Virus record (IMG/VR): IMGVR_UViG_3300019776_000961
Span: 64,001-128,000 of that record
Direction: 5' to 3' (one strand)
Length of the DNA stretch: 64,000 nt
From: a virus
The notes under the pieces were generated by a model, which searched no databases, was not told the DNA's origin, and saw only the letters and a list, made by a program, of their open reading frames with translations. Below are positions 37,841-50,483 of this stretch, piece by piece. How positions within the stretch are numbered: the first letter of the stretch is position 1; each line of letters starts with the position of its first letter. Both the position numbers and the translations under genes were made by a program.

Positions 37841-40357
37841 TTATGCTACAAGTTCAGTGAAGTTCTGATTTGTTCTAGTTGCGTAGAAGTTCACCAAGAT
37901 GAACTCTGCAGATCTTACTGGCTTGAGGTAGATATCAACTACAAGTGAGTTATCATCAATTACAGCAGGTGTATTATTACGTTCATCACAAATGATGAGG
38001 TAGTCATATAGACCCTGTGTATTCTTAGCGACATCAAAGATCGGTGTAAGAACGTTGATGATGTTTGTTCTTGTGAAGAGTGTGTTTGGCTCGAATACGT
38101 AGTAACGTACTGTCTGCTTAACTTGTGTCTCAAGTGTGAGGAACAAGCGACGTACATTAATACGATCGAATGCACTTGGAAGCTTCTGTGCTGTCTTCTG
38201 ACCGAAGATTACGAAACCTTCGTTCGGGAAATATGCAACAGGGTTGAGTGAGATCGAATAGAGTTGATCGCGTTCCTTTTGATTTGCATAGTAACCGAGA
38301 TCTGTTACGTTGTTTATGACACCGCGTGTGAATCCTGCTGGTGCGTACCAAGGGTAGAAGTTTGAATCTGTATTACCCATTGCTGCAGCCGCAAAGCCAG
38401 AGAACGGAACCCAGACCTGACTATTTGATACTGAGTCATAAACCTGTGCAATATTTGCATATGCGCAAGCATAACTTGTATTGATAGTTGAGAATTGATT
38501 ACGTAGCGGCCAGTAGATGTTCTGTGAGAAACTCTTGTTTGGATCGGCTAGTGTTTTGAGATTGTTACCCTCTACGAAGATATTGGTAATAGGATCTGCA
38601 ATAAAGAGGTGATCTCTACGTGTTGCACTTGCAAATGTAACAAACGGCTGAACTGCAGCAAGATAGTTTGCTACCATTGCAGGTTGTGATCCGATTTGCT
38701 GTGCTGTAAGAGCGTATAGCTGACTGTCGAAAGGTACAGTATCATCAAAATAACCTGATGTTGCAGGATTTAAGGAATTGACGAAAATTGTACCTAGACC
38801 AGCTTCTGTTACAATCGAAAGCGGATAGATATCCGAATTTGAAATGTAGTTAAGCATGTTTGTAACCTTGCCGGGCACGTCGCCAATTACCTTTGTTGAG
38901 AGATTTGTCTGTGCATATACACCAAGCGGCATTAACTTACTTGTAGTACCAAGTGAATTCATTAGACCTGCTACAACACCTGATGGTGCACCGATACGTG
39001 TTTCATACGAACCAGCGACATATTGGAAGTTACCGAAGTCAGCAGAAAGCGATACGTTATATGCAGTAACCGTGGCTATTGCTGTTTTATTAAGAACGGT
39101 GTTAAGACTGATACCGTTAGGATATAAAGCTGAAAGTGTATTTGAGTTAGTAAATACACCAGCAGAAACTGCAGATGTACATGTACCTGTTGTAATACTG
39201 TCAGACTCACCGGTTATTGGAAGATCTTTATCAGAACTTAAGAAACGTACTGTCTTTGTAGGATTACCGGAAAGATCAAGCCATGAAGTACCAACATTAC
39301 GGTTTGAAATATATGGGTTAACGAGTGAGACAATATTTTGTGAAGTATTATCTACATTTTCTAAGAAGAAGCTTACTGGCTGACCACCTGTTGTAACACT
39401 CTGCTGTCTGTAATAGTCAAGTGATGCAACATAACTTTCCTGAAGAACATAATCAAGTGCAATTGTATCAGGTGAGAAGACAGATTGACGTAGCTTAAAG
39501 AGACCTAATGAAATTGTATCATTCCACTTTGGTGTAGATGTTGTGAATGTCGGAATATTTTCGAGTACCTCAGAAACACTGCCAGCTGGTGATGTTGGTG
39601 TTGCAGATAACGGGAAGTTGAGGCGTGCATTCGGTATAGAGATGTATGATGTGCCGTTTGTTGTTGAACCACCAGCATATTGAGCTGTTGCAGTACTGTT
39701 GACTGTGAATACAGCGTTTATATCGTTATAATTGATAGCAGGGTTATGGTTGGTATTATCGATAACACCGAGATACAGACCTTCAAAACGTTGATTAATG
39801 GTGGACTGTGAATTGTTGAGAACGATGAGACCAGCTTGACCGAGCTGTGAAACATCGGTAAATGTTGTAATACCCTGTGTATCGGTCTGCCATGTAAAGG
39901 CATTGCCCGATTGAATAGCGAGGTACTGATTTTGTGAAAGTGTAATATGGGTTGGCTGACCAAAGAAAATTGTACTTGCAGATAGTGCAGTAGCAGAGAG
40001 ACTTGTTGATGTTAGGCCGTTAGTATAAGAAACAACAGGATAAACAAGGGCACTGTACTGATTTGATGTACCAATACCAAGAGCACTGCCATAAGCTAAT
40101 CTAAAAACTTGAATATTTGAATTCGATGTAAAGGCTGCCTTTACAGTATAGTAAAAATATCTTTCTGCAGCATTAGTTGGCTGACCGAAAATTTGTTCAA
40201 ATTCAGAAAGACTACTTACCTGTATAGGTTCAGCAACGGGACCCTTAGGAGCGAAGCCTGGAATAAAAATTGTTGTAGGAGGTGCACCAACTGCTCTTAA
40301 TGAAAGATCAACCTCGTTGATCTGTACACCTGGACTCTGAATTGTACGATTTGCCAT
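37841..40357 (-). CDS. gp18: Tail sheath protein, gp18-like (838 aa)
   Basis: SPGVQINEVDLS, WYAPAGFTRG, ERDQLYSISLNPV, FGQKT, SAFDRINVRRLF, FEPN and IYLKPVRSAEFILVNF. Confidence 0.97.
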   Translation of the reverse strand: MANRTIQSPGVQINEVDLSLRAVGAPPTTIFIPGFAPKGPVAEPIQVSSLSEFEQIFGQPTNAAERYFYYTVKAAFTSNSNIQVFRLAYGSALGIGTSNQYSALVYPVVSYTNGLTSTSLSATALSASTIFFGQPTHITLSQNQYLAIQSGNAFTWQTDTQGITTFTDVSQLGQAGLIVLNNSQSTINQRFEGLYLGVIDNTNHNPAINYNDINAVFTVNSTATAQYAGGSTTNGTSYISIPNARLNFPLSATPTSPAGSVSEVLENIPTFTTSTPKWNDTISLGLFKLRQSVFSPDTIALDYVLQESYVASLDYYRQQSVTTGGQPVSFFLENVDNTSQNIVSLVNPYISNRNVGTSWLDLSGNPTKTVRFLSSDKDLPITGESDSITTGTCTSAVSAGVFTNSNTLSALYPNGISLNTVLNKTAIATVTAYNVSLSADFGNFQYVAGSYETRIGAPSGVVAGLMNSLGTTSKLMPLGVYAQTNLSTKVIGDVPGKVTNMLNYISNSDIYPLSIVTEAGLGTIFVNSLNPATSGYFDDTVPFDSQLYALTAQQIGSQPAMVANYLAAVQPFVTFASATRRDHLFIADPITNIFVEGNNLKTLADPNKSFSQNIYWPLRNQFSTINTSYACAYANIAQVYDSVSNSQVWVPFSGFAAAAMGNTDSNFYPWYAPAGFTRGVINNVTDLGYYANQKERDQLYSISLNPVAYFPNEGFVIFGQKTAQKLPSAFDRINVRRLFLTLETQVKQTVRYYVFEPNTLFTRTNIINVLTPIFDVAKNTQGLYDYLIICDERNNTPAVIDDNSLVVDIYLKPVRSAEFILVNFYATRTNQNFTELVA

Positions 40358-40363
40358 ATAAAG

Positions 40364-40371
40364 TATTTATA
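40364..40371 (-). promoter_or_regulatory. T4 late promoter consensus (tail sheath)
   Basis: TATAAATA, then 6 nt, then ATG at 40357. Confidence 0.8.
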
Positions 40372-40396
40372 TTTTTTTGATTGAACTTTTTAAAGT

Positions 40397-40996
40397 TTAG
40401 AAACTTTCTATATCAGAAGTCACAAGAGACACTAATAATTGCGAGTAGCTATATGTAAAAGATGATTCTATCTCAGTACCGTCCCTGTAACTGTACTCTA
40501 TGCCACCGAGAGACGTAGGAAATGCGTCAGTGTACTTAAATTCTACTACTCTCTTATTGTATTCATCGAGTGCAAAAATAGAAATATTAGTTCTATATTC
40601 GAAGTTTGATGACTTACCTGATGTTATATTATTGGCGTCATAAACACCTGTTTTATCATGATTAAGCAGATTAAGCCAGCTGTAAATAGTCCAATAATTA
40701 TTGAATCTATTATCAACAGTAAAACTTACAGTATTAGGTGCAAAGACGTTACGGGTATGGCTTGAAGCAGCAAGAGTCTGACCAGAATATCTTATATCAA
40801 CAGGAGGTATTTCAATAGACGGCACTATTGCACCGAAAACAGAAAACTTAATACTATCAGGTATGACGGTATTATTGTTACGGTTGAAATTTGATTCATG
40901 GTTTTTGAAACATTTCGGTAGATCAAAAGCCATGAGAAATTTATCTTTTCTCGACTTATTGAATGGACTCTGTGTATAGACTGCAGCGTTTGACAT
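40397..40996 (-). CDS. Tail completion / sheath stabiliser, gp3-like
   Basis: VPSIEIP...VSFTVDNRFNNYWTIYSWL...FKYTDAFPTSLGGIEYS; TAATG overlap with the terL C-half stop. Confidence 0.7.
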   Translation of the reverse strand: MSNAAVYTQSPFNKSRKDKFLMAFDLPKCFKNHESNFNRNNNTVIPDSIKFSVFGAIVPSIEIPPVDIRYSGQTLAASSHTRNVFAPNTVSFTVDNRFNNYWTIYSWLNLLNHDKTGVYDANNITSGKSSNFEYRTNISIFALDEYNKRVVEFKYTDAFPTSLGGIEYSYRDGTEIESSFTYSYSQLLVSLVTSDIESF

Positions 40997-42549
40997 TAGT
41001 ATTGGGAGTTGTTAAAGAATTGCCACCCTTGTGATTCAAGATCCTTAACTTCAGAAAACTCATTTGAGTCATCAGCTGGAAATAAAATCGGCAAGGGCAT
41101 TGATGCATCTCCATTCGATCTTTCGTTAGAGTAAATCGAAGTTGGATTTACAAAATATTTAATGCCATAATCGAGTGGTCTTAACTTTAATGGCTTTTTA
41201 TTATCATCATACTGTTCAATTTCAAAGTATTTTTCAACTATTTCATCATCAAGAATCATAAGAGCCCATATAAGACTCATGACTCTATCATCCCAGTTAC
41301 TTGCACCAGGTCTTGCAGCCCAAGTACCGTTTGGGTATCTAACAAAGTTTTTGAGTTCGTTTAATGTATTTAAATTACGTATCTTCAAGCATTTTAACTC
41401 ATTAACCCAGTATCTCATGTTAGTTACACCTTTATATTTGGTGTTTGTGTGTGCAATAACACCTGGTTTATTAAAGGCTAATTTACCTGCTTTTGCACCA
41501 TAAGAAACAATATTTTCATATTGATGTGTTTGCTTAAGTTGGTCGACAACTTGTGCACCACAGTTATTACGCTCAATTAATGCAAGTGGATTACCCCAGT
41601 GTTGAAGAATCTCGTAAAGTTTTGTAGTGAAATTAATAGGACTAATATTTCTATTATGATACTCAGCTACTTGTTTTATGCTTCTTAAATCGGTTATATC
41701 AAGAATCTGTACTACAGAAGCAGCCTCACCGACACCTTCACTTATATCAACTCCTGCTACATATATTTTTTCTTGATTTGGTTCTTCCCATAAGAGATAG
41801 TGTCCTTCATCAAAAACAAATGTAGGTTCAGCACACTCGGTCTTTAGTTCATCAAAAAGATGTTCATTTACGGCACTTTCACCTGTCTCAAGAAACACGT
41901 TTCCAAACTCTTGATCAAACGCATCCCTACTTCCGAGCTCTCTTATAGTATTCTTCTTCCATTTTTCATCTCTACCAGGGACCTCCCACCAGTCGACCTT
42001 TTCAGCATGCCATCCATTATGTTTCTCCGGATCAGGCTCAAGTGCACCAGTATAAAGTTCGTGAAAGAGGTTTCCGGTGCCGTTAGGTGTTGATGCGACA
42101 AAGATTTTTGATTTTTTAGATGATGAAATAATAGGGTAAACAGATTTCCAGAAATCTTGTACCATATGATTATCAATAAATGCCAACTCATCAAGAATAA
42201 GGCATTGATGACTCAATATATCATTTGCAAAATATCTATGATTATCCTTGACCTCTAGCAGTTCATAGACAGGTTCATTGTTTGTATATACATCAACAGT
42301 GTTAACTTTAATACCTGAAAACAAAACATCACCTTTTTTTATATCCTTTGCGTATACCCACTCGTACGTATTGTTTTTTATAATTTTATGTTTAGAGGTA
42401 CATACTAATTCCTTACCATTCGATAGAGTGAATTTAATTTTATTCTCATTTGTACCTACGATAATACCCTTAAAGTCCTTAAATCCCTCATCAGTCAATA
42501 CTTCGAAGGTATTATTTTTAAAAATTTTATAATTTGTAATATCAGCCAT
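40996..42549 (-). CDS. terL: Terminase large subunit, C-terminal half (Walker B plus RNase H-like nuclease) fused behind a C-intein
   Basis: After intein residues 1-115: CLILDELAFID (Walker B), VASTPNG, FDQEF, YVAGVDISEG and DDRVMS. Confidence 0.93.
   Translation of the reverse strand: MADITNYKIFKNNTFEVLTDEGFKDFKGIIVGTNENKIKFTLSNGKELVCTSKHKIIKNNTYEWVYAKDIKKGDVLFSGIKVNTVDVYTNNEPVYELLEVKDNHRYFANDILSHQCLILDELAFIDNHMVQDFWKSVYPIISSSKKSKIFVASTPNGTGNLFHELYTGALEPDPEKHNGWHAEKVDWWEVPGRDEKWKKNTIRELGSRDAFDQEFGNVFLETGESAVNEHLFDELKTECAEPTFVFDEGHYLLWEEPNQEKIYVAGVDISEGVGEAASVVQILDITDLRSIKQVAEYHNRNISPINFTTKLYEILQHWGNPLALIERNNCGAQVVDQLKQTHQYENIVSYGAKAGKLAFNKPGVIAHTNTKYKGVTNMRYWVNELKCLKIRNLNTLNELKNFVRYPNGTWAARPGASNWDDRVMSLIWALMILDDEIVEKYFEIEQYDDNKKPLKLRPLDYGIKYFVNPTSIYSNERSNGDASMPLPILFPADDSNEFSEVKDLESQGWQFFNNSQY
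42205..42549 (-). mobile_element. C-terminal fragment of a split intein (115 aa) ending His-Gln, with Cys at +1
   Basis: VLTDEGFKDF, block B CTSKH, AKDIKKGD, block F PVYELLEV and block G YFANDILSHQ|C. Codon CAA at 42205-42207 read on the minus strand. Confidence 0.9.
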
Positions 42550-43264
42550 TTTGTTTCTTTATTGCTCTTGTACCTGTGCCGCGGAACCAACCGAGCGGTA
42601 TACATGTACTAGAATTCACACGCTTTATTTCTTTAGTTACTGGATTATGTATATAGATACATCCTATCCCGCTGCGCAGTTTTTTAACTTCATGTGAAGC
42701 ATTAAGCGCTGCATCTGACATCTTTTTTCTTGCATGTTCTGAACGCTTCATCCCTGTGTGGGTAGTAGCGGTTTTACGGATCTTATTCGGATTTTTGTTT
42801 TGTGGATTTACTCTTGAACGTCCACGAAGTGATTCAGATATTTTTTTAGCTCTTTCTTCTGTATATACTTCTTTAAGCATTTTTTGCTTCCATTCGATAT
42901 TCTGCCATTGTTTCTTCTTAAAGGATGAAAAATCTTTACGATGTTGATCCGACCATTCACATCTACCGTACCCACCTTCACGTAAATTATATGTATCTGG
43001 TCTATTAATATACTCTTTAGTTACCAGACGACGCTCTTCTTCAAGAGCTTCAATATAGGTATTAAATTGAGAAAGTATTTCTTTTTTAAACGCGTCTCTA
43101 CCATATTTTTGTATAGCGTGTTTAATAATCTTACCTGAGCCCATGTAACCATCATCCAAATTATCTGTTCTATGTACACCTATATATTCCATTCTAGTTA
43201 CCATATTTGTTAATCGGTAAATATAATTATATGTTCTGTTTATATTAGGATTATTAGGGCCCAT
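42542..43264 (-). mobile_element. Free-standing GIY-YIG homing endonuclease (Seg-like) with NUMOD3-type repeats
   Basis: YIYRLTN...EYIGVH...DDGYMGSG...AIQKYG...FKKEIL and HTGMKRSEHARKKMS. Start MGPNN at 43264; inserted between the terL halves. Confidence 0.92.
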
Positions 43265-43269
43265 ATTAA

Positions 43270-43275
43270 TACTTA
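43270..43275 (-). promoter_or_regulatory. Variant late promoter box for the homing endonuclease
   Basis: TAAGTA, then 5 nt, then ATG at 43264. Confidence 0.55.
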
Positions 43276-43312
43276 TGTATAACAATTAATTCTGGAGGAA
43301 TTTGCATTACTT

Positions 43313-43972
43313 TTATTCATCTACAATTTCTAAAAACATTTCACCGTTATCTTTGAGTATCTCTGTAAGATCGTGCATACTAATTTGAAATTCTAATAAT
43401 GTTTTTTTGTCTCTCAGTGTCACCGTTGTGTTACCACCCACGCAATTACAACTATCACCACGACCAGCATCACTACTTGTAGTGCTAATACCTATACTTG
43501 AACCATTGGCAAGTGACATTGATGTCTTGCCGTATTCTAAAACACCAGGCTTAAGGTAGTTTGGTAGCTTCTCATAAGCCATACGCACACGCTTAAAAAT
43601 ATTAATAGCGGTTTGCTCTTTGTTAGCGACAATTAATATACGCTGATCTTCTTGAAAGCATGCGACCCAAAGTGCATATATCGTCATTAATGTTGTTTTA
43701 CCAATCTGACGTGAAGCTAATAAACATACGAATCTATTGTCTCTTAAGCTTCTTAAAATCTTTTTCTGGAAAGAATGTAATCTAATTTTTATCTTACCTT
43801 CATCAAGGTTTGTAATGAAGAAGAAGTTTTCAGCAAAGTATAAAATGTTTTTTGTACATTTTTTAATGTCTTCAACCCACTCCGGGTTATCAATATAATT
43901 GAATGTCGCGTCCTGTGTAGGGAGTGACTCATTACCCAGATAATAACCTGTTTTCTGCTTTTTAGTAGGCAT
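43313..43972 (-). CDS. terL: Terminase large subunit, N-terminal half (ATPase) fused to an N-intein
   Basis: ILYFAENF, LHSFQ, ASRQIGKTT (Walker A), ANKEQTA and GRGDSCN, then the intein. Confidence 0.93.
   Translation of the reverse strand: MPTKKQKTGYYLGNESLPTQDATFNYIDNPEWVEDIKKCTKNILYFAENFFFITNLDEGKIKIRLHSFQKKILRSLRDNRFVCLLASRQIGKTTLMTIYALWVACFQEDQRILIVANKEQTAINIFKRVRMAYEKLPNYLKPGVLEYGKTSMSLANGSSIGISTTSSDAGRGDSCNCVGGNTTVTLRDKKTLLEFQISMHDLTEILKDNGEMFLEIVDE
43316..43444 (-). mobile_element. Short N-terminal fragment of a split intein (43 aa)
   Basis: Block A CVGGNTTVTL starts at residue 177 (TGC at 43442-43444), followed by ISMHDL; stop after 43 residues. Confidence 0.88.
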
Positions 43973-43991
43973 TTATAATAAATACTTATGC

Positions 43992-44816
43992 ATGAACTTA
44001 ACACGTACAATGAATGAACTCGGTGATTTATATCTCGAGAAGATGACAATTCCTAATGATACCTTTGAAGTACAGACAGAGAAAAAGGTAAAGCTAGCAA
44101 AAGGCGACAAGAAAGCTTTTGTTGGTAAGAAGTCAGGTCCTGAAGATGCTGATGGCTTTAAAAAAGACATCATTGATCCGAAAACAGCAAAAGCTGACAA
44201 TTATTATGAGCCTAAGAAATTCTCACAAAATAATGAAAAAACAGAAACACAGAAGATAAATACTTTTATGAACAAATCTATTTTTGACAGACTTTACGAA
44301 GAGGTAATGCTCGAAAACGACATGCATCTTCCCAATCAAGACGATTCAACAGACGCTGAAGCTCTCGGTCTTCCAGGTGAAGCCGGTGGTGCAGAGGTTG
44401 ATGGAGAAGAGGTAACAATTACACTTTCACGTGATCTCGCAGAAAAGCTTCATGAAGTTCTCATGGGTGTTCTCGAAGCACACGACGATTCAGCAGCAGC
44501 TGATGAAGACCTCGATGTTGAGGGTACAGAAGATGAAGAGTGTGATGAAGATAATCAGACTTTCGGAGAGGCTACAGATATCGAGCCACTTTCAGATGAG
44601 CACGGTAAGAAGCTCATCGCTAAGGGCAGCCAGAAGGTCCCTGGTACAGTAACATCAGAAGTAGATAGCAAAGAAGGTAAGGGCGATACACAGGGTATCG
44701 TTAACGACGGTAAGCCACAGCCTCTTAAGAAGGTAGTAGGTGGCGGTGTTCCATCAAACAAGGTTGCAGGTAATGCAAGTAAGGTTGGTAAGACACTCTT
44801 CGGTGCAGCTAAGTAA
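43992..44816 (+). CDS. Acidic, low-complexity late protein
   Basis: 274 aa with an Asp/Glu-rich centre; TAAATA 7 nt upstream; strong terminator downstream. Confidence 0.8.
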   Translation: MNLTRTMNELGDLYLEKMTIPNDTFEVQTEKKVKLAKGDKKAFVGKKSGPEDADGFKKDIIDPKTAKADNYYEPKKFSQNNEKTETQKINTFMNKSIFDRLYEEVMLENDMHLPNQDDSTDAEALGLPGEAGGAEVDGEEVTITLSRDLAEKLHEVLMGVLEAHDDSAAADEDLDVEGTEDEECDEDNQTFGEATDIEPLSDEHGKKLIAKGSQKVPGTVTSEVDSKEGKGDTQGIVNDGKPQPLKKVVGGGVPSNKVAGNASKVGKTLFGAAK

Positions 44817-49303: not shown

Positions 49304-49489
49304 TTATTTCTCTGGCTGTCTGAGATCTCTAACTGATACTACACCCTTTCTTATAAACGCACCAGAGGCAGGATCCGTATAATGAGCTTCTGTAATCTCC
49401 TTACCATCTCTAATATACTTTGAGATAGTGGGACGCACAGGCTGACCACTAATAGGCGATTGAATAATTTTTGGCTGAATAAAGTCCAT
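49304..49489 (-). CDS. Hypothetical protein
   Basis: Start MDFIQP at 49489; beta-rich (SPISGQPV...HYTDPASG). Confidence 0.6.
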   Translation of the reverse strand: MDFIQPKIIQSPISGQPVRPTISKYIRDGKEITEAHYTDPASGAFIRKGVVSVRDLRQPEK

Positions 49490-49503
49490 GTTATTACTTA
49501 TGA

Positions 49504-49791
49504 CTATGTTGATGGATTTGCTATGCTTTTTGCATGTTGCTTTAAACACACTGCATATACGTCTTTTGGTATCTTTTGTACAACTTCAACAATATGTTCT
49601 TTAAGAGCAAAATTAAATTTATCTTTTGGAATAATTCGATTTTGCATATCAGGCAGAGTAAGGAAACATAAATCATTTCCGTCGTTCTTTGCTAATACAA
49701 GTAACTCCCCTAGATACTTACCACCAGTTACAGCATAAACATACCGAGGCTTAGGATGTCTATTTGTAATCTTAGTTATTATATCCGCCAT
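49504..49791 (-). CDS. Hypothetical protein
   Basis: Likely start MADII at 49791; YVYAVTGGKYLGELLV. Confidence 0.6.
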   Translation of the reverse strand: MADIITKITNRHPKPRYVYAVTGGKYLGELLVLAKNDGNDLCFLTLPDMQNRIIPKDKFNFALKEHIVEVVQKIPKDVYAVCLKQHAKSIANPST

Positions 49792-50122
49792 TTTCGTCAT
49801 CATCTTTTGCAATCGAATTTTGAAAAAACTTATTGACCAATGTGGCGAGAGAATCGGCTTGTTGCTGATTATGTGCGCAAATATACTGTACAGGTTGCCC
49901 TTCAAACGTATAGCCGAGAAGAATAAAGCTATTAAGAAATTCCTCTACAACACCAATTAATGCCTCATAGTTGTTACGTGTGCTATTTTTCTCGTTAAGC
50001 TTTTCTTTTAGATAAGCAACGAGAGCACTCTGTATCATTTCTTTTGTAGAAGAATCAGAATTAGGTACAAATGATTCATCTGTCTTATTCTGTTCATTCG
50101 GAATTTTCTTGTCCTTCATCAT
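49772..50122 (-). CDS. Hypothetical protein
   Basis: 116 aa; TAAATA lies 3 and 6 nt before two tandem ATG codons. Confidence 0.65.
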   Translation of the reverse strand: MMKDKKIPNEQNKTDESFVPNSDSSTKEMIQSALVAYLKEKLNEKNSTRNNYEALIGVVEEFLNSFILLGYTFEGQPVQYICAHNQQQADSLATLVNKFFQNSIAKDDDENGGYNN

Positions 50123-50483
50123 GATTATTTAATCTTTTTGACATATAGCGGTTACGCCCATGGTAATTGCTATCATTACTAACACCATGAGTAATTAGAT
50201 AATCAATAATAACCTCAATACTAGAAGTACTAATGCAAAGATTTTTCTGCATATTGTAACCGCCGTCATTTAATTCAAAAACTACGTCCCCGAGAGCTTC
50301 CTTATTATTGTAACAAGTTATCATAACAGAACGTTCACTAGGATTAACCATAACAGTCCAACGACGTGAGTCTGCCTTGCCATAGACAGAGAATAGCTTT
50401 ATTACGATAAAGCCATTATCACGCAAGCGCTTTATAAAATAACTTGGTGTTTTAAGTTTATTACGGCTAATTTGTGTTTTCAT
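50094..50483 (-). CDS. Hypothetical protein
   Basis: 129 aa, directly downstream of the clamp gene. Confidence 0.65.
   Translation of the reverse strand: MKTQISRNKLKTPSYFIKRLRDNGFIVIKLFSVYGKADSRRWTVMVNPSERSVMITCYNNKEALGDVVFELNDGGYNMQKNLCISTSSIEVIIDYLITHGVSNDSNYHGRNRYMSKRLNNHDEGQENSE

Follow-up and report, generated by a model that had tools for sequence, protein, structure and literature searches.

The window, by which we mean the whole 64,000-nucleotide stretch of DNA analysed, corresponds to bases 64001-128000 of a 193-kb IMG/VR viral contig (~88% complete, GC content ~35%) from an uncultured phage whose structural genes are T4-like, and it carries the gene for the large terminase subunit (TerL) in two pieces. 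Three consecutive open reading frames (ORFs) lie on the minus strand, at 43972..43313 (219 aa), 43285..42542 and 42549..40996 (517 aa). Using Pfam and PHROGs, we assigned the outer two to the N- and C-terminal parts of a T4-type large terminase (Terminase_6N and Terminase_6C in Pfam, terminase large subunit in PHROGs), and the middle one to a homing endonuclease gene (HEG). Each terminase half carries a piece of an intein at the break, an N-terminal piece (IntN) of 43 aa and a C-terminal piece (IntC) of 115 aa; an initial annotation, made from the letters of this DNA and its translated ORFs, had read terL in this way, and the ORF coordinates and translations confirm it. Three in-frame TAA codons follow the N ORF and the C ORF lies in a different frame, so the split is real and represents neither read-through nor a sequencing frameshift of a single gene. 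Moreover, the same three-gene order is found again on 8 or more independent viral contigs from metagenomes (counting loci with both sides visible) and is therefore due neither to chance nor to an artefact of assembly.

The boundaries of the intein are defined to the residue. Cys177 of the N ORF opens IntN straight after ...GDSCN, and the first 115 aa of the C ORF end in ...SHQ, after which CLILDE begins the C-extein. The N-extein is 93% identical to, and collinear with, residues 1-177 of the intein-less orthologue P0010, with similarity ending exactly at Cys1 of IntN, and the C-extein is 76-82% identical to intein-less orthologues. Excision of the intein from the window ORFs gives ...GDSCN-CLILDE... 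within a TerL of 176 + 402 = 578 aa, the length that had been proposed, and in ~20 intein-less orthologues AGRGDSCN is joined without a gap to CLILDE, a junction identical to the predicted ligation product GRGDSCN-CLILDE. The C-extein aligns to residues 251-548 of T4 gp17 (3ezk, E 2e-18), and gp17 is collinear with the rejoined TerL. In T4 gp17 structures CLILDE is aligned with the Walker B strand MIYIDE, which agrees with the earlier placement of Walker B at the junction. Judged from these alignments, precise removal of the intein restores a collinear host protein.

Table 1. Features of the split terL locus in the window
Feature	Coordinates	Strand	Details
TerL N-extein, 176 aa	43445..43972	-	Walker A motif SRQIGKT; ends ...GRGDSCN; Terminase_6N, phrog_5989
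IntN, 43 aa + TAA stop	43313..43444	-	Cys1, block A (CVGGNTTV), beta hairpin, short helix, acidic tail (net charge -5)
Seg-like GIY-YIG HEG, free-standing, 240 aa	42542..43264	-	likely ATG at 43264
IntC, 115 aa	42205..42549	-	block B T51-x-x-H54; block F with Glu96 and His104; block G ending His114-Gln115
TerL C-extein, 402 aa + stop	40996..42204	-	begins with Cys+1 in the Walker B strand (CLILDE); rest of ATPase and RNaseH-like nuclease domain

Relatives of the intein were collected in an exhaustive phmmer search, which returned 1014 cluster representatives (50% identity clusters); the best 150 of these were tabulated. The initial annotation had proposed a comparison with AceL-type TerL inteins, and IntC is indeed homologous to CatC (PDB 6dsl_B, E 3.6e-8 over 109 residues) as well as to the gp41-1 intein (E 3.5e-7). 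Cys1 is present in every related IntN seen (6 related loci and a contiguous homologue), block B TxxH, the terminal Gln and Cys+1 are found in 16 of 16 close IntC relatives, and the Thr and His of block B in 122 of the 150 best relatives. The contiguous homologue, from P0114 (locus L013), is an unbroken 162-aa intein, 58% identical, in which the IntN tail runs directly into the Met-Ala-Asp that begins IntC. An AlphaFold (AF2) model of this protein has a mean confidence (pLDDT) of 90.6, its sole low-confidence stretch being the loop, past the helix, at which the window intein is broken, and in a Foldseek search of the PDB with this model all top matches are mini-inteins, including Cat (30% identity, TM 0.77). 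Ahead of the break lie the first beta hairpin and a short helix, behind it block B; this position is the one at which AceL-TerL, GOS-TerL and Cat are divided and differs from the canonical endonuclease-insertion point. These homologies place the window intein among class 1 HINT domains, as a relative of the atypically split inteins AceL-TerL and Cat. Being encoded by two ORFs broken before block B, with an IntN below ~50 aa and an IntC above ~100 aa, it is an atypically split intein, as the 43/115-aa pair had been designated.

The insertion point of related TerL inteins varies, with at least three sites seen in the ATPase domain: one ahead of Walker B (used in the window), one after the Walker B Asp-Glu, and one at a Gln-Glu-Tyr motif further on. 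About half of the best 150 representatives start at the protein N-terminus, that is, are split. The statement in the initial annotation that TerL inteins with a short IntN are rare thus holds among characterised examples and fails in metagenomes.

At its C-terminal end the intein departs from the canonical pattern. It ends in His-Gln, and not His-Asn, before Cys+1, and position 4 of block F is Glu (Glu96) in place of Asp. The Gln recurs in the related loci as well as in all the close IntC relatives, among which the residue before it can be H, K, R, N, E, M or S. Within the best 150 representatives, 29 end in Gln-Cys and 112 in Asn-Cys, and the pairing of block F residue with terminal residue is E/Q in 19, D/N in 109, D/Q in 10 and E/N in 3, so that 13 are in a mixed state. 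Co-variation of the terminal Gln with the block F Glu was considered and set aside: the tree provides 3 supported independent contrasts, with which a sign test cannot reach significance, and the Glu/Gln pairing may be a lineage signature only. Inteins ending in Gln are known and able to splice, and because Gln is a documented functional variant at this position it does not exclude membership of class 1 (PMC4031507). With a Gln at the end and a Glu in block F, splicing may proceed more slowly or by a different mechanism. A further and tentative idea, which we regard as possible and rather doubtful, is that a clade with Asn replaced by Gln, Asp by Glu, and a relaxed penultimate His has a co-adapted and mechanistically distinct last step (glutarimide formation) in a naturally split intein with a short IntN. 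Were this so, the intein would be orthogonal to the AceL/GOS/Cat tools, possibly with different kinetics or regulation.

The gap between the halves had been ascribed to a GIY-YIG gene, and the matches of the middle ORF agree. It matches Pfam SegE_GIY-YIG with 31.7 bits (cut-off 25) in a match limited to residues 40-87, and phrog_314, homing endonuclease, over residues 11-211 (E 1e-38); YIY...YIG is readable at residues 13-27 of its 240-aa product, and the DNA of the catalytic domain is ~69% identical to T4 segB/segD over 200 nt. A comparison of the product with solved structures by sequence gave no match. On these family matches the HEG product contains a GIY-YIG catalytic domain. The HEGs of relatives start at a Met equivalent to the window ATG at 43264, and orthologues with 46-89% identity occupy the same place between intein halves in 10 related loci. 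With a same-strand, free-standing homing endonuclease gene lodged between its intein-bearing halves, and kept there in those loci, this terL is a fractured gene.

The stop codon of the HEG and the start codon of the third ORF overlap (AATGGCTGA), and in the window and four related loci the stop lies -8 to +2 nt from the IntC start, a proximity that fits translational coupling of the IntC-TerL-C protein to the HEG. The T4-type late promoter TATAAATA is absent from the terL region, the nearest copy preceding the sheath-like gene at 40364-40371, and scans for sigma-70 promoters and terminators gave results at or below chance. A regulatory hairpin of the kind noted before the endonuclease in some fractured genes was considered and rejected, the fold ahead of the HEG being no more stable than that of shuffled sequence (z = +1.7). 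In L004, L009 and L010 (e.g. L009:3168-3995) some of the HEG orthologues are 50-65 aa longer; their C-terminal module, which has the motif ...IP-x-GW-x-x-G-x-G..., occurs as a tandem duplicate and is presumably a DNA-binding repeat.

Comparison of related loci shows that the intein pieces and the endonuclease gene travel together. Between the window and L002, its nearest intein relative, DNA identity is 86% in the HEG, 92% in IntC and 72% in the C-extein, falling within ~100 nt of the splice site, and the synonymous divergence (dS) is 0.38 in IntC versus 1.6 in the extein. In the same pair the ratio of nonsynonymous to synonymous divergence (dN/dS) amounts to 0.088 in IntC and 0.07 over the 3' portion of the HEG that could be compared, so strong purifying selection acts on both. 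The boundaries are sharper still between L009 and L010: identity is 0.7-0.8 in the N-extein, jumps to 0.92-1.0 exactly at the first IntN codon, is held at that level through the HEG to the end of IntC, and then decays over ~120 nt, with dS of 0.03 in IntC versus 1.05 in the extein. The 40 terL genes nearest to the window exteins (76-82% amino acid identity) have no intein, and the closest intein (93% amino acid identity) resides in an extein that is 74% identical. Sharp identity boundaries, low cassette dS and the intein-less state of the nearest terL genes together indicate that IntN, HEG and IntC move as a single unit between diverged terL genes. They form one mobile cassette, transferred horizontally as a whole, with short flanks resembling co-conversion tracts, as homing predicts. 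The youth of the cassette relative to its flanks and its sporadic presence among near-identical terL genes are indirect signs that the HEG may cleave the cassette-free allele and promote homing.

The relatives also differ in how far the gene has been broken. Many orthologues have an empty site; P0114 has a contiguous mini-intein; the window and its counterparts, at least 8 loci, have a split intein with a HEG; and L008 has a split intein and no HEG. In L008 (L008:3312-5524) the intein lies in two ORFs in different frames, separated by a 27-nt gap with no endonuclease gene, and the locus looks like a stage after endonuclease loss, with its own purine-rich ribosome-binding region. The gene-breaking model put forward by Dassa et al. 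postulates these same stages (PMC2677866).

We propose that terL of the window phage is a fractured gene in which a mini-intein at Walker B has been split by a HEG, that the halves are joined by trans-splicing to the 578-aa TerL, and that the HEG drives homing of the cassette; we give this reading as a whole a probability of roughly 0.8. The mini-intein would have sat at the start of the TerL Walker B strand and been broken by the free-standing Seg-like GIY-YIG HEG in the loop past the first hairpin and helix. The three genes would be transcribed in one direction and TerL-N-IntN and IntC-TerL-C made as separate proteins, with initiation of the latter tightly coupled to the HEG stop. The 43-aa IntN would then dock into the nearly complete 115-aa IntC to finish the HINT fold, Cys1 would form a thioester, Cys+1 would take over the N-extein, and the terminal Gln would cyclise in place of Asn to release the intein, leaving a 578-aa TerL with an intact ATPase centre. 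The HEG, for its part, most likely cuts the intein-less terL of co-infecting relatives, into which the whole IntN-HEG-IntC cassette would be copied. The sequence comparisons establish the anatomy of the locus, its homologies, the exact junction, the purifying selection and the horizontal transfer of the cassette; the splicing chemistry, the role of the Gln, the translational coupling and the endonuclease target are what we infer.

Trans-splicing of the window TerL is deduced from its sequence and is favoured by the conserved nucleophiles and the purifying selection on IntC. Several observations weigh against this proposal. The Pfam Intein_splicing match in the C ORF scores below its cut-off (27.5 vs 35.8), the HINT fold was modelled on the contiguous homologue as a proxy for the window's own two pieces, and no promoter or ribosome-binding signal was identified for the HEG. 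The clade also has non-canonical residues at three positions that aid the last cleavage step (the Gln, the block F Glu and the penultimate His, which is replaced in relatives), and a terminal Gln slows splicing in two archaeal Pol II (DNA polymerase II) inteins, though it is optimal in the iridovirus ribonucleotide reductase (RNR) intein (PMC4031507). The same three departures would also fit a reading in which the TerL halves were held together non-covalently, by the intein pieces or by an interface of their own, and worked as a heterodimer without splicing, and split enzymes that do so have precedent (PMC3045599; cited in PMC2677866). We consider such a heterodimer unlikely. Cys1, TxxH, the terminal Gln and Cys+1 are invariant while adjacent positions vary freely, a pattern expected of catalytic residues and not of a surface that only docks; the break falls just ahead of the Walker B strand, within the core sheet of the ATPase, where a 158-residue intein left in place would probably obstruct the active site; and the related atypical TerL inteins AceL-TerL, GOS-TerL and Cat splice in vitro (PMC11766414).

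GIY-YIG genes are often borne by introns in T4-like phages, and the existence of a contiguous version of the intein in P0114 would suit a HEG that lies in a group I intron, with RNA splicing yielding a contiguous intein-containing terL mRNA and protein splicing then occurring in cis. The locus makes this very improbable: Rfam detected neither a group I intron nor a credible RNA family over 40900-44100 at E up to 1, the 48 nt between the IntN stop and the HEG start, together with the overlap of the HEG stop and the IntC start, leave no room for an intron core, the 5' region has no stable fold, as described above, and L008 keeps the split with its 27-nt gap and no HEG. Least probable of all, in our estimate, is that the terL is defunct or in decay, or that its assembly is artefactual, and that the phage packages its DNA with another terminase. 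A contig that is ~88% complete does leave room for a second terL, but the 193-kb record contains a single terL match, neither extein is shortened, their identity to intact orthologues being 76-93%, dN/dS is low, and the same arrangement is found on many independent contigs.

That fractured phage genes with split inteins and free-standing endonucleases are known, as the initial annotation had stated, is documented by Dassa et al. (2009), who described 26-27 fractured-gene loci with intervening endonuclease genes of the GIY-YIG or Vsr-like type, among them a gp17-like terminase from a myovirus, with an intein 'fractured at an unusual point' and a C part of 122 residues (PMC2677866). GOS-TerL, from that Lake Gatun (GOS) terminase locus, has an IntN of 37 aa and an IntC of 115 aa with Ser1 and Cys+1, and was followed by AceL-TerL (25/104) and Cat (PMC11766414). 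The window shares with the GOS-TerL locus a gp17-like terminase in two same-strand genes, an intein broken near its N-terminus, a homing endonuclease gene between the halves and a C part holding all motifs but the first, reported as 122 aa and used as 115 aa in a later construct (PMC2677866, PMC11766414). By its published description, which is the basis of this comparison, GOS-TerL differs in having Ser1 and a 37-aa IntN, where the window has Cys1 and a 43-aa IntN. A terminase fracture with this split having thus been described in 2009, the window adds a clear example and opens no new category; it differs in its Cys1, its 43-aa IntN and its Gln/Glu pair.

AceL-TerL and Cat, a consensus version derived from it (6DSL), are, like the window intein, atypically split class 1 TerL inteins with Cys1 and Cys+1 and a break after the first hairpin and helix, but they have an IntN of 25-30 aa, an IntC of 104 aa, a His-Asn end and a block F Asp, where the window has His-Gln and Glu. 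The gp41-1, gp41-8, NrdJ-1 and IMPDH-1 loci share the gene arrangement, a host half with IntN, a free-standing GIY-YIG or Vsr-like endonuclease gene, and IntC with the other half (PMC2677866), and the gp41-1 intein is a detectable sequence relative of the window IntC; their inteins are broken at the usual place into an IntN of 88-105 aa and an IntC of 33-54 aa, proportions that are reversed in the window. The Gln-ending inteins of Chilo iridescent virus RNR and of Pyrococcus abyssi and Methanoculleus Pol II likewise have Gln for Asn, and it is presumed to cyclise (PMC4031507); they are contiguous and come from other hosts, whereas here Gln marks an entire clade of phage TerL inteins, both split and contiguous (29 of the 150 best clusters). 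In nrdA/mobE of phage Aeh1 an essential gene is also cut by a free-standing homing endonuclease gene with the parts in one operon, but there is no intein and the halves assemble non-covalently (PMC3045599).

Two further terL arrangements were encountered among the relatives. In L013:2983-5598 (P0114) a single terL contains two inteins. At the Walker A lysine sits a mini-intein of 147 aa whose first residue is Ala (ALALDT...) and whose end, ...CN, is followed by Thr; the second intein, the contiguous 162-aa version of the window intein, ends in Lys-Asn. P0019 and loci L005 and L006 have an insertion of ~1 kb, also at the Walker A site. In the cultured Fletchervirus Campylobacter phage CP30A (JX569801.1) the coding sequence annotated 'terminase' (443 aa; L017:2504-3832 (+), equivalent to 74590-75918) opens with an IntC of ~100 aa ending ...SHN, followed by CAFIDKW, and the N half of TerL, ending ...FIDE before a 31-aa IntN, is found at L018:1492-2208 (-), equivalent to ~49486-50202. 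The two halves are thus ~24.5 kb apart on opposite strands. The sequence suggests an atypically split TerL intein, inserted after Walker B, whose halves are dispersed in the genome and have no endonuclease gene between them; many related Campylobacter phage records contain the same match.

The 193-kb genome contains no second intein and no second copy of the window HEG, and cultured phages in GenBank include no close relative of the window phage (all < 60% identity). Directly downstream of terL, at 37841-40996 on the minus strand, lie a 199-aa tail-tube-like gene, whose L013 orthologue is Phage_TTP_2, and the 838-aa sheath-like gene that follows the late promoter noted above. The tube gene precedes the sheath gene, the opposite of the T4 order gp18-gp19.

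For protein engineering, split inteins with a short IntN are useful in semisynthesis, and the window intein brings a Cys1/Cys+1 pair and a native Gln at its end, with many natural variants to draw on. For phage biology, the locus shows cleanly, in its genome context, a packaging motor that is essential and most likely requires protein trans-splicing. Evidence from the related loci for the joint movement of IntN, endonuclease gene and IntC is unusually sharp, and the relatives display every stage of the gene-breaking model.

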